DNA of 64,000 nt from Escherichia coli O157:H7 (GTDB taxonomy: Bacteria > Pseudomonadota > Gammaproteobacteria > Enterobacterales > Enterobacteriaceae): NCBI RefSeq assembly GCF_013167455.1, contig NZ_CP038328.1, one strand, 5' to 3'. The stretch's first letter is position 1. The number at the start of each line of letters is the position of its first letter. Below, piece by piece: positions 21,001 to 27,000 of this stretch. The position numbers were made by a program.

Positions 21001-24000
21001 CCGGAAGCCATACTGCGCTACGGGCGCAACCTGCTGAAGATGGATGCGTTCGGTTGCACCAGTCGCGGTCAGGCCCACCGTGCCGGGCTGTGGGTGATAA
21101 AGACCGGACTGCTGGAAACGCAGACGGTGGATTTCACGCTCGGGTCACAGGGGCTGCGTCACACACCCGGTGACATTATTGAAATCTGTGATAACGACTA
21201 TGCCGGGACCATGACCGGCGGACGTGTCCTGTCCATCGATGCCGCCAGCCGCACCCTGACACTGGACCGTGAGGTGACCCTGCCGGAGACCGGTGCCGCC
21301 ACGGTGAACCTGATTAACGGCAGCGGTAAGCCGGTGAGCGTGGCCATCACTGCACACCCCGCGCCGGACCGGATACAGGTCAGCACCCTGCCGGATGGCG
21401 TGGAGACATACGGTGTGTGGGGGCTCTCCCTGCCGTCACTGCGTCGTCGCCTGTTCCGCTGTGTCTCCATCCGGGAAAACACGGACGGCACCTTTGCCAT
21501 CACGGCAGTGCAGCACGTACCGGAAAAAGAAGCCATCGTGGATAACGGGGCGCACTTTGACGGCGACCAGAGCGGCACCCTGAACAGCGTCATCCCTCCG
21601 GCAGTGCAGCACCTCACGGTGGAGGTGAGCGCGGCTGACGGCCAGTATCTGGCACAGGCGAAATGGGACACGCCGCGGGTGGTGAAGGGGGTGCGCTTCA
21701 GTCTGCGACTGACCAGCGGAAGCGGAGAAGGCAGCCGTCTGGTGACCACCGCCATCACTGCGGATACAGAGCATCGTTCCAGTGGTCTGCCGCTCGGGGA
21801 ATACACCCTGACAGTCAGGGCAATTAACAGTTATGGCCAGCAGGGCGAACCGGCCACCACCACGTTCAGGATTAATGCACCTGCGGTACCCGCCACGATT
21901 GAGCTGACACCGGGCTATTTTCAGATAACGGCGGTCCCGCGTCTTGCGGTGTATGACCCGACGGTACAGTTTGAGTTCTGGTTCTCGGAAACGCGGATTA
22001 CCGATATCAGGCAGGTTGAAACCACAGCCCGCTATCTTGGCACGGGGCTGTACTGGATAGCCGCCAGTATCAATATCAAACCGGGCCATGATTATTACTT
22101 TTATATCCGCAGTGTGAACACCGTTGGCAAATCGGCATTTGTAGAGGCTGTCGGTCAGCCGAGTGATGATGCATCAGGCTATCTGGATTTTTTCAAAGGC
22201 GAGATAGGGAAAACCCATCTGGCTCAGGAGCTGTGGACGCAGATTGATAACGGTCAGCTTGCGCCTGACCTGACTGAAATCAGGACGTCCATAACGGATG
22301 TCAGCAATGAAATAACACAGACCGTCAATAAGAAACTGGAAGACCAGAGTGCAGCGATCCAGCAGATACAGAAGGTTCAGGTTGATACAAATAATAACCT
22401 GAACAGCATGTGGGCAGTGAAGCTGCAGCAGATGCAGGACGGACGCCTTTATATTGCGGGTATCGGTGCCGGTATTGAGAACACCCCCGACGGCATGCAG
22501 AGTCAGGTGCTGCTGGCAGCAGACAGGATTGCGATGATTAATCCTGCGAATGGCAACACAAAGCCGATGTTTGTTGGTCAGGGCGATCAGATATTCATGA
22601 ATGAAGTGTTCCTGAAATATCTGACGGCTCCCACCATTACCAGCGGCGGTAATCCTCCGGCATTTTCCCTGACACCAGACGGGCGACTGACGGCGAAAAA
22701 TGCGGATATCAGTGGCAGTGTGAATGCGAACTCAGGAGCGCTCAACAATGTCACGATTAACCAGAACTGTACGATTAAGGGCATGCTGGAGGCGCCCCAG
22801 GTCAGAGGGGATTTCGTTAAAGCTGTATCAAAAGCCTTCCCGAAAAAAGTCGGTACGTGGGGTAACACGGAAACACCAAACGGTACGGTTACAGTCACCA
22901 TCAGCGATGATCATAACTTTGACCGCCAGATTATTATTCCGCCCATTATTTTTAACGGTATAGCGTATGACGATCCGGGGAGCGGAAATAACCCAGGAGG
23001 CACGCGATACACGGGTTATGGTTTTGAAGTTCGCAAAAACGGCGTATTAATCGCATCCAGAGAAACTAAAGGGGCCATTCCCGGTAGTTACAGTGCAGTT
23101 ATTGATATGCCTAGTGGTGGTGGTAGCGTCACTCTGGAGTTTAAGATTTTCCAGAAAGGCAATCAGGGGGCAGGCAATATCACCGACTGTACGGTGATTG
23201 TGACCAAAAAAGCTGCTTCCGGCATCAGTATTCGTTGAAATATTTATAACCCCAATAAAGGGCGTCAGGAATGACGCCTTTTTTATTGCAGAAAAGCGAG
23301 AGGTAATTATGCGTAAACTTTATGCCGCCATTTTGTCCGCAGCCATTTGTCTGACCGTATCCGGTGCGCCTGCATGGGCGTCTGAGCAGCAGGCCACGCT
23401 GAGCGCGGGGTATCTTCATGTCTCGACGAACGCTCCCGGTAGCGATAATCTTAACGGGATTAACGTGAAATACCGTTATGAATTCACGGACACGCTGGGG
23501 CTGGTGACGTCATTCAGCTATGCAGGAGACAGGAATCGCCAGATTACCCGTTACAGCGATACCCGCTGGCATGAAGATTCCGTGCGTAACCGCTGGTTCA
23601 GCGTAATGGCGGGGCCGTCTGTGCGCGTGAATGAATGGTTCAGCGCGTATGCGATGGCGGGTGTGGCTTACAGCCGTGTGTCGACTTTCTCCGGGGATTA
23701 TCTTCGCGTAACTGACAACAAGGGGAAAACGCACGATGTGCTGACCGGAAGTGATGACGGTCGCCACAGCAACACGTCTCTGGCGTGGGGGGGCTGGCGT
23801 GCAGTTTAACCCGACCGAATCCGTGGCCATTGATATTGCTTATGAAGGCTCCGGCAGTGGCGACTGGCGCACTGACGGTTTCATCGTGGGTGTCGGTTAT
23901 AAGTTCTGATTAGCCAGGTAACACAGTGTTATGACAGCCCGCCGGTTCAGGCGGGCTTTTTTGTGGGGTGAATATGGCAGTAAAGATTTCAGGTGTACTG

Positions 24001-27000
24001 AAAGACGGCACAGGAAAACCGGTAGAGAACTGCACCATTCAACTGAAAGCCAGACGTAACAGCGCCACGGTGGTGGTGAACACGGTGGCCTCTGAAAATC
24101 CGGATGAAGCCGGTCGTTACAGCATGGACGTTGAGTACGGTCAGTACAGCGTCATTCTGTTGGTGGAGGGCTTCCCGCCGTCACATGCCGGGACCATCAC
24201 CGTGTATGAAGATTCTCAACCGGGGACGCTGAATGATTTTCTCGGTGCCATGTCGGAGGATGACGTCCGGCCGGAGGCACTGCGCCGTTTTGAACTGATG
24301 GTGGAAGAAGCGGCGCGTCACGCTGAGGAGGCGAAGAAGAATGCCGGAGAGGCGGAGACGTCCGCGAGGAATGCCGGCATATCAGCCAGTCAGGCAGAAG
24401 AGAGCGCGGCAAATGCTGACACTTCAGCAGGGGATGCATCGGAGTCAGCCCGGCAGGCGGCAGAAAGTGCAGCCGCTGCAAAGCAGTCAGAGGAGGCGTC
24501 CTCGTCCTCGGCCTCTGCGGCCGCTCAAAAAGCCAGTGAGTCATCACAAAGTGCAGCAGAAGCTGAATTGTCAAGAAAGACGGCAGAAAGTGCAGCCGGT
24601 AATGCAGCCAGGGATGCAACGACCGCAACAGAAAAAGCCCGGGAGTCAGCAGAAAGCGCACAGTCAGCGGAACAAAGCAGGATAGCGGCGGAAGAGGCCG
24701 TAAACCGAATCCCCACCGTGGTGGGACCTCCCGGGCCAAAGGGGGAACAGGGGCCCGCGGGTCCTCAGGGGCCGAAGGGTGATAAGGGAGAGCGCGGTGA
24801 CACCGGCCCTGTCGGGGCAACCGGCGAACGGGGACCGGCAGGTGATGCTGGTCCGGCAGGCCCGCAGGGGCCGAAAGGTGACAGGGGAGAGCGGGGAGAG
24901 ACCGGTCTGACGGGAAATGCAGGTCCACAGGGTCCAAAGGGAGACACCGGGGCAGCAGGCCCGGCAGGCCCACAGGGACCGAAAGGAGAAACAGGTGCGG
25001 CTGGCCCGGTGGGGGCAACCGGACCTCAGGGACCGAAGGGCGACCCGGGGGAGACACAAATCCGTTTTCGTCTGGGGCCGGCGAGCATTATTGAGACAAA
25101 CAGCCATGGCTGGTTCCCGGATACAGATGGCGCACTCATCACCGGACTGACCTTTCTTGACCCCAAAGATGCCACACAGGTTCAGGGGCTGTTTCGGCAT
25201 TTGCAGGTCAGGTTTGGTGACGGGCCGTGGCAGGATGTTAAGGGGCTGGATGAAGTGGGCAGTGATACAGGCAGAACAGGAGAATGACATGAATATACTA
25301 AAAAAACTTATGCAGCGTCTGTGTGGTTGCGGAAAGCATGATGGCCGTGAACACGTGCAGTCGCTTACAGCACAACTGCGACTGGGGCCGGCAGACATCC
25401 TGGAGTCCGATGAGAATGGTATTATTCCGGAGCAGGACAGGGTAATCACGCAGGTGGTGATACTGGATGCGGATAAAAAGCAGATACAGTGCGTGGTAAG
25501 ACCGCTGCAAATTCTGCGTGCTGACGGGAGGTGGGAAAATATTGGCGGAATGAAATAGCCGACAGCTTCACAAAAACCGGAGTCCGGCTCCGGTTTTTGT
25601 TGTCATGTCCGGTGGATGTTTGTTAGGAATGTTCAGACAGGTTTATTTTGAATTTACACAGAATCCTAAACAGGTTCGAAAATTAAGAAAGAGGTTGTAT
25701 GTTTAGCATAAGAACCCTACTACCTATTAGCGCCAGCGTATCAGTTCCGACAAAACAATCTCAATCCATCCCAATAACTTTAGCAGGGAGAACAATCGAA
25801 AAAGCGCAAGAGAAAGAAGGATTACTTGTTTTTTTAGGAATGAAATCCGTTAATGACTATACTCTTAATATTCTTGGCCAAAATGTTTCAAGAGTCACAA
25901 CGGGGAAAAAACCGTATGATTTATTATTCCTGAATGATGCTACAAAACAAGATTTTGATAAAAGGAAAATGGAGTTTACATATCCTGGAGCAAATAAAAG
26001 CCATCTACAATCAAGTAATAGCGATGTTGTTGCTGCTGCAGCTATAAGTATTACAGCGACAGAGATGAAAACCATCCTGCCAGATGATTTAACACTAGGA
26101 AAATACAACAAAATTTATCTGTCTGGGCATGGTTCTGCTGGTCTACCTCTTCTTAAGTGCGGAGATGAATTTTTATCACCGTCAGATATTGTCGACCGCA
26201 TTGTTCAGCATAATCTTCATGAAATAGATGATATCAGATTAACATCCTGTAACTCAGCCAACATAATAAAAAACAAAGACTTCTCTCCTGATGAAATAGA
26301 AAAATCCGCAAATATGAATAACGGCTGGTTGGCCAGGGCATTATTTGGTCAAAAGAGGTCTTTAGCAGAACACGTCTATGCCGAGTTTGAACGTCGCGGA
26401 ATTAACGTTTCTATATCAGGTTACCATGGCACTGGCGTTTTTTATGTACCAGAGCATGGTAAACCAACAACGCATCTACGCTCCACAACTGTGCCTGCAA
26501 CACCTGAACATACTGTAAGAAGAAGCGACTACAGAGCCACTTTGGGTAGAACTCAACCCATAGATATTGAGTAATTGAGCCAGCATATACACTTGATGGT
26601 TAGGAAACAGAATCATTGTTTTAAACATTTCCTGGCCATTAATATTGTCGGCGGGAGCATATCCAGGACTGGCCGGCAAACCGGGTACGCGATCTGTTGC
26701 CATGGAAAGTTGATCTGAGCGCTCAGTAAATATCAATACGGTTCTGGCGAGCCGCTTACGATGCATGAGAATCACTAATAGTATGTAATTATTACATTTT
26801 ATTTACAATGCTGTTTCTGTTGGTCTGTATCCATAATTATGAAATGCTGACTTATGGTGTCAAAATAACACATATTCCTTTCAATAATCATTTCTTTTAC
26901 TATCTTTTCCCTGCTGAGAGGGTGGGGTAGATGTTCTCTTGTGAGATTCATGAACGCAGACTTATCATAAAGAGTGCATATGTTGGAGTTCAGTGCGTTC

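Follow-up and report, generated by a model that had tools for sequence, protein, structure and literature searches.

The DNA analysed here, a window of 64,000 nucleotides (nt) from contig NZ_CP038328.1 of Escherichia coli O157:H7 (assembly GCF_013167455.1), comes from a lambdoid prophage inserted next to dacD and sbmC. It carries a gene for a collagen-like side tail fibre, followed directly by a small open reading frame (ORF), referred to below as S, whose product contains a second copy of the domain found at the fibre's distal end (the F knob). The genes at the locus are, in order, J (19684-23238), lom, the fibre gene, S, a terminator, a hypothetical ORF of 291 amino acids (aa) and nleG7 on the minus strand. 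Over nucleotides 23900-25650, strain 17B6-2 has the same sequence (100% identity), and other enterohaemorrhagic E. coli (EHEC) genomes are 97-99% identical. The features on which the analysis turns are the following.

23974..25287, plus strand: side tail fibre gene of the EPclA type, 437 aa, with Pfam, PGAP and PDB matches.
25060..25251, plus strand: F knob, the PfC (Phage_fiber_C) domain at fibre residues 363-426; PF06820, 123 bits, model positions 1-64 of 64.
25277..25291, plus strand: coupling junction, with AGGAG within the last codons of the fibre gene, its TGA at 25285-25287, one base, and the ATG of S at 25289.
25289..25558, plus strand: small ORF S (89 aa), in which a leader of 27 aa precedes a free-standing PfC knob at residues 28-89.
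25570..25600, plus strand: intrinsic terminator after S, a 14-bp stem then a U-run, which closes the fibre-S unit.

The ATG of the fibre gene is the start also used by PGAP. The protein consists of a lambda-Stf-type N-terminal domain (PF08400, residues 1-133), an Ala/Ser/Glu-rich coiled coil, a collagen block of 37 G-X-Y triplets (about residues 251-361), the knob and an 11-aa tail. Its Pfam matches are phage_tail_N, two Collagen matches (251-360) and Phage_fiber_C, and residues 1-93 match the tail-fibre chain of the lambda cryo-electron microscopy (cryo-EM) entry PDB 9e7m. The window fibre is the published protein EPclA (ECs2717), a collagen-like side tail fibre of O157:H7 prophages (Ghosh et al., 2012; PMC3368898), with which it shares the length of 437 aa, the architecture PfN-PCoil-Col-PfC and the position of PfC at 363-426. 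Both PfC alone and Trx-PfC were found to be trimers by size-exclusion chromatography with multi-angle laser light scattering, and PfC nucleated collagen refolding, making it an autonomous trimerisation module by experiment (PMC3368898). The PfC-only gene downstream goes unmentioned in that study (Ghosh et al., 2012).

The leader of S, MNILKKLMQRLCGC, has a predicted helix at residues 3-12 and a conserved L-x-G-C-x-K motif. Residues 28-89 match PF06820 over the entire model (125 bits, 1-64 of 64), and the whole protein aligns end to end with PHROG 576, a small 'tail fiber protein' (residues 1-89 on profile positions 1-89 of 89, E=1.6e-59). PF06820 was the only family found in a Pfam-A scan of S, with no homology to Tfa or Caudo_TAP; no NCBIfam model matched, and nothing in the PDB matched either S or the family profile by sequence, even at E<=10. 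A lipoprotein signal at the L-x-G-C of the leader was considered and rejected, since the leader as read from sequence lacks a hydrophobic core.

The fibre gene and S meet in the sequence GGA GAA TGA c ATG, with AGGAG placed 6 nt upstream of the ATG of S. The initial annotation had correctly recognized a paralogous small ORF with its own Shine-Dalgarno sequence, but its dimensions are to be amended: the protein has 89 rather than 90 residues, the repeated domain spans 28-89 rather than 28-90, and the spacer is 1 nt, not 2 nt. Of the 89 copies that we compared, 86 have a nearly invariant junction and 82 an intact S. The corresponding small ORF of Salmonella (S', 79 aa) overlaps its fibre gene by 14 nt and has its own AGGAGG site. 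S has its own start and, in both genera, its own conserved ribosome-binding site. The terminator hairpin after S has a folding energy of -25.1 kcal/mol (z = -5.2). Approximately the first 53 nt 3' of the S stop codon are common to siphoviral and podoviral Stx (Shiga toxin) phages, and a hairpin of similar kind lies 3' of Salmonella S'. A search for homology to lambda tfa downstream of S found none; only the first ∼ 53-70 nt are common to Stx and lambdoid phages. In a related strain, PGAP annotates a 67-bp fragment of a tail-assembly protein directly after S.

The proposal that the fibre tip beyond the G-X-Y block is paralogous to the next ORF is borne out by direct comparison. BLASTP aligns fibre residues 364-425 with S residues 29-88 (24 of 62 identical, 39%; 63% positives; E=1e-12), and both domains match PF06820 over its full length. 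The Smith-Waterman score of the two is 110, compared with 23.1 ± 3.9 in 2000 shuffles (z=22) and far above the shuffle maximum of 44. No third copy of the knob is present within the window.

S, its domain family and the idea of a tip reservoir have already been annotated or published. In the PGAP annotation the fibre and S are each a 'phage tail fiber C-terminal domain-containing protein'; GenBank records call S an 'alternate tail fiber tip' (atfT, phage AU5Stx1) or a 'tail fiber assembly chaperone' (phage 434). The identical small ORF is the 89-aa ORF68 of the Stx2 phage Sp5 (Mondal et al., 2016; PMC5155283). Together with 933W L0122, phi24B gp59 and AU5Stx1 atfT it is the same protein as S (89 aa, 92-100% identical), encoded directly 3' of a PfC-tipped collagen-like fibre gene with the junction and terminator seen in the window. 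The partner differs: a siphoviral lambda-type EPclA fibre in the window, and the podoviral EPclB in the Sp5, 933W, phi24B and AU5Stx1 group. Sp5 needs its fibre gene ORF67 to form plaques on K-12 and to lysogenize it, and ORF68 is listed among the late genes that are non-essential on this host (PMC5155283). Nothing on the function of S turned up when the literature was searched for its locus tags or for the name 'alternate tail fiber tip'. What the present analysis adds is the strict linkage of the pair, its occurrence on three shafts, the age of the duplication, the slower evolution of S, the conserved ribosome-binding site and the phi24B peptides described below.

In word-indexed searches S matched no proteins other than small ones from E. 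coli, Escherichia albertii and Citrobacter rodentium, and the fibre knob matched fibre ends only; apparently 'distant' knob variants from the word index were rejected as frameshifted pseudogene calls. A profile search of 1.84 billion protein representatives gave 94 clusters, nearly all of them fragments of the F and S clades and mostly from E. coli. Giant repeat proteins in the same search were judged spurious, their scores being sums of weak partial matches. Scanning one genome per species located three loci, one in E. albertii and two on short contigs assigned to Xanthomonas and Clostridiales; the latter are near-identical to E. coli and probably represent contamination or mis-binning. Among 50,697 phage records, 296 contain S and 296 contain the F knob, with almost identical organism breakdowns (counts and breakdowns were compared, not the record lists). 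F is followed by S at a fixed offset of 310 nt in 84 of 88 sources, the exceptions being contig ends or deletion derivatives. The cassette is present at a coverage of at least 80% in 692 of 5426 complete E. coli genomes.

The pair is found on three types of shaft. The first is the lambda-type side fibre (Stf) seen, for example, in the window and in phage 434. The second, in podoviral Stx phages, is their lateral fibre (Sp5 ORF67, phi24B gp61, AU5Stx1 tfpS; see also PMC5155283). The third is a 212-aa fibre of Salmonella enterica, mostly of subspecies salamae, which has no collagen region (locus L088, 110-974) and whose N-terminal half resembles myovirus-type tail fibres of Yersinia and Vibrio phages. 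The F-S pair is a module independent of the shaft. Downstream of the Salmonella pair lie genes for NleG and SopA-like effectors, as in EHEC.

Several loci show further, degenerate pieces. Extra S fragments lie 0.7-2 kb downstream of an intact S, among effector genes (L087, 4348-4494; also L080, L050, L084 and L021). In Citrobacter rodentium (L089-L091, 5479-6237) a degraded prophage remnant beside NleG and other effectors holds a fibre stub, in which the N-terminal domain is joined to the knob and the collagen region is out of frame, together with a shortened S that has a frameshift in the A-run of the leader and a 4-aa deletion in the knob.

Pairwise identities between knobs (primes denote Salmonella) are 65% for S-S', 38% for F-F', 40% for F-S and 30% for F'-S'. 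The two S proteins are thus closer to each other than either is to its own fibre, which implies that the duplication predates the split between the E. coli and Salmonella versions. The duplication is old, both copies have been kept since, and of the two it is the free copy S that evolves more slowly. Selection was estimated as pairwise Nei-Gojobori ratios of nonsynonymous to synonymous substitution (dN/dS) from 33 distinct intact S and 49 distinct fibre-knob sequences. The values are 0.05 for the S knob (at dS 0.14), 0.37 for the S leader and 0.24 for the fibre knob; S is a protein under strong purifying constraint rather than a decaying remnant.

The initial annotation had raised a remnant of modular shuffling as one explanation. 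The modular part is upheld by the movement of the pair between fibre types, but the remnant part conflicts with the intact reading frames, the dN/dS of the knob and the Salmonella orthologues. That S is simply a decaying leftover of a past recombination in the fibre gene, with no function, could be argued from the mosaic tail regions of O157:H7 prophages, from the tail-assembly-protein fragment that PGAP places right after S in the related strain and from the degenerate S fragments downstream at some loci. Set against a dN/dS of 0.05 at dS 0.14, intact frames and a near-invariant junction in most copies, an orthologous pair kept in Salmonella at 65% identity and the presence of S in the plaque-forming phages 434 and phi24B, we regard this explanation as highly improbable.

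Another explanation is that S serves as a silent cassette whose recombination with the fibre gene would swap the knob and change the host range. This 'intragenomic reservoir' was proposed for Sp5 ORF68 (Mondal et al., 2016; PMC5155283), the designation 'alternate tail fiber tip' in GenBank implies it, and it was also put forward in the initial annotation. F and S knob DNA is 52% identical overall and 40% identical at third positions, and the longest identical run of 11 nt is too short for efficient homologous exchange. The sole DNA repeat is a 27-nt stretch at the two knob starts (74% identical), which could be taken in favour of exchange. We found no inverted repeats around the knobs and no invertase or reverse transcriptase adjoining the pair, the neighbours being lom, J and effectors. 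Mu Gin S/S', P1 Cin and diversity-generating retroelements likewise have a second tip-coding copy beside an expressed fibre gene; the window differs from these systems in that its copies lie in the same orientation, share only 52% of their DNA sequence and lack the inverted repeats, invertase or reverse transcriptase.

All knobs from the 88 sources sort into either the F or the S clade, with no mosaics. One case of an alternative fibre C-terminus is a draft E. coli contig (L002, 1-291) recovered from two samples. Here an in-frame deletion joins 13 collagen triplets to an S-type knob through a 7-nt microhomology, CCGGCAG; its product would be a naturally occurring fibre that bears the 'other' tip. 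No single-piece junction of this type occurs among the best 40 matches in the 5426 complete E. coli genomes. Exchange between F and S can therefore take place by illegitimate recombination, but is rare. Moreover, S is not silent, having its own ribosome-binding site and start as well as detected peptides (below), and it is less variable than the expressed knob, the opposite of what is expected of a variable reservoir. Given the 52% nucleotide identity, the two clean clades and the greater conservation of the free copy, a reservoir for tip exchange is weakly supported at best, and we consider it unlikely.

Protein evidence for S comes from a 2026 preprint on phi24B. In its supplement, the S-specific tryptic peptides VITQVVILDADKK and ADGTWENIGGMK are identified in a sample of purified virions, both filed under a hypothetical gp61-gp59 fusion entry that carries the annotation 'Spike or just gp59?' (10.64898/2026.04.10.717836). 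An unlabelled column of the peptide table, read here as spectral counts, gives 3 for each S peptide; for fibre-knob peptides the values are 47 and 97. The main text of the preprint does not discuss gp59; it argues from cryo-EM that the knob is probably not a binder of BamA (10.64898/2026.04.10.717836). Translation of S is thus established; in virion preparations the protein is a minor component at most and could be carry-over.

The fusion entry raises a different explanation, in which a +1 shift by some ribosomes, towards the 3' end of the fibre gene, would yield a fibre carrying two knobs in tandem. S does lie in the +1 frame, and in E. coli phages the 46 codons that precede its ATG in this frame are free of stops; the phi24B authors included gp61-gp59 fusions in their search database; and a distant metagenomic fibre (P0239, below) has four PfC-like modules in a single chain. 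However, there is no slippery motif, and the P-site GAA preceding the UGA cannot re-pair in the +1 frame. A frameshift signal was also sought at Sp5 ORF67/ORF68, and none was found (Mondal et al., 2016; PMC5155283). In Salmonella the frame of S' is closed one codon before its ATG, and an early shift within the open stretch would destroy the fibre's own knob. The examined part of the phi24B table contains no gp61-gp59 junction peptide, whereas the normal C-terminal peptide of the fibre, GLDEVGSDTGR, is abundant. We judge a frameshifted extension to be very unlikely. Decay, frameshift fusion and routine tip exchange are all poorly supported.

Structure prediction, which had been suggested as a check, was carried out for the S monomer. 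With an alignment of 18 rows AlphaFold2 (AF2) predicts a helix in the leader (residues 3-12), which a disordered linker connects to a small all-beta domain. The mean predicted local distance difference test (pLDDT) is 74; blocks within residues 31-80 average 83-89, and the last block averages 74; from a single sequence pLDDT fell to 50 and the model was useless. Fold searches place PfC among the small beta modules of fibres of the P2 gpH and Mu S type. P0239 (L092, 3505-5202; metagenome SRR17035117) is a phage-like fibre in which four PfC-like modules, each ending in ...DG-W-x-IPA-KG, stand in tandem before the collagen region. Among the 1.84 billion representatives no other protein is a plausible distant relative of PfC. 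PfC is one of the small trimeric beta modules found along phage fibres, and such modules can be consecutive in one chain.

We favour, with slightly less than even confidence, a model in which S is a functional, separately translated paralogue of the knob that acts as its dispensable accessory or assembly partner. The model builds on what is demonstrated here, namely paralogy, co-inheritance, purifying selection, an own start site and an old duplication. A small gene that directly follows a fibre gene and accompanies the distal domain from one unrelated shaft to another shows the pattern of a cognate accessory or assembly gene. S would derive from the old duplication and have been kept as an obligate genetic partner of any PfC-ended fibre, being made in step with the fibre by translational coupling. 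It would probably form a PfC trimer of its own and join the distal fibre knob, either transiently during fibre folding or at low occupancy on the finished fibre, and so may aid assembly or host interaction. The fibre knob, the more variable of the two and the likelier to face a receptor, is the fast-evolving and presumably receptor-facing element, and S would be the conserved helper that is dispensable on a rough laboratory host. It is possible, if rather doubtful, that S represents a new kind of accessory: a separate trimer that docks on, or co-assembles with, the knob and tunes assembly or host interaction on natural hosts with O-antigen. Docking would then involve residues common to both clades (R-x-G, G...P, IT, LQ and DG-W).

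Several observations weigh against a partner role for S. Recombinant EPclA forms trimers in laboratory E. coli when S is absent (PMC3368898), and an in-frame deletion of ORF68 in Sp5 still gives plaques and lysogens on K-12 (PMC5155283). S is scarce in phi24B virions, at 3 per peptide in the unlabelled column compared with 47-97 for knob peptides. The conservation of S beside a knob that varies down to 38% identity is awkward for a sequence-specific partner, unless the shared residues are the ones contacted. The interpretation in the initial annotation is partly supported: its 'tip-mimicking chaperone' is the best fit to the co-inheritance and the coupling, but S is not an obligatory chaperone, because the Sp5 deletion remains infectious although the fibre gene is essential.

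Known accessory proteins offer a partial parallel. Lambda Tfa, P2 gpG, Mu U and T2-type gp38 are, like S, encoded by small genes directly 3' of a fibre gene; they too are co-transferred with the distal domain of the fibre, and traces of S may stay on virions. S differs from these proteins in having no sequence relation to them, in being a paralogue of its presumed client and in not being needed for the infectivity of Sp5. As in the case of Tfa, the gene is downstream and co-inherited, but the literature indicates that S is not required for functional fibres (PMC5155283, PMC3368898). Adhesins of the T2 gp38 type are stoichiometric virion components with hypervariable loops, whereas S has a dN/dS of 0.05, 65% identity between genera and low peptide counts.

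Finally, S might work independently of the fibre, as a decoy or exclusion protein that, in the lysogen or in the late phase, occupies the fibre receptor or modulates adsorption. Exclusion genes are often found beside receptor-binding genes, as with T5 llp and phi80 cor. S mimics the presumed receptor-binding knob, its leader keeps the L-x-G-C motif across genera, and a role of this kind would account for its non-essentiality on K-12. The leader has, however, no hydrophobic core for export (as read from the sequence alone), its translation is tied to that of a late structural gene and S precedes the operon terminator, and a decoy should follow the variation of the knob, yet S is far more conserved. 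A function of S apart from the fibre therefore seems quite unlikely to us, and we retain the accessory or assembly partner as the preferred explanation.

The surroundings of the pair contain additional features. Upstream, lom (23309-23909) is frameshifted in this window, with seven G instead of six at ∼ 23787, giving ORFs of 166 aa and 52 aa; an intact Lom of 199 aa is present in the related strain 2010C-3142. Between lom and the start of the fibre gene, at 23936-23957, there is a hairpin that resembles a terminator and has a T-run. The fibre-S unit is flanked by two terminators and presumably relies on antiterminated late transcription. Downstream, the 291-aa ORF (25699-26574, plus strand; PGAP 'hypothetical') occupies the interval between the fibre-S terminator and nleG7 (26799-27467, minus strand). 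It had no match in an NCBIfam search; because its position is that of exchangeable effector loci, it may be an unrecognised effector. Long antisense ORFs over the collagen-coding repeats (24197-25057, minus strand, 286 aa; 24664-25449, minus strand, 261 aa) were rejected as genes, being a by-product expected from G+C-rich triplet repeats. Elsewhere in the window, three identical ALIL pseudoknot matches (42991-43107, plus strand; 54582-54698 and 63426-63542, both minus strand) mark three insertion sequence copies of the IS3 family (IS629/IS1203-like), and three tRNA-Asn genes lie among these copies (52021-52096, 55742-55817 and 57566-57641).

Fibres of this type are carried by most lambdoid and Stx prophages of EHEC. 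S, as a conserved and co-inherited paralogue, is an obvious candidate partner in host finding by Stx phages. If S does act as an assembly or adaptor protein that mimics its client, it would represent a new class of tail-fibre accessory factors and would be useful for the engineering of collagen-like fibres.

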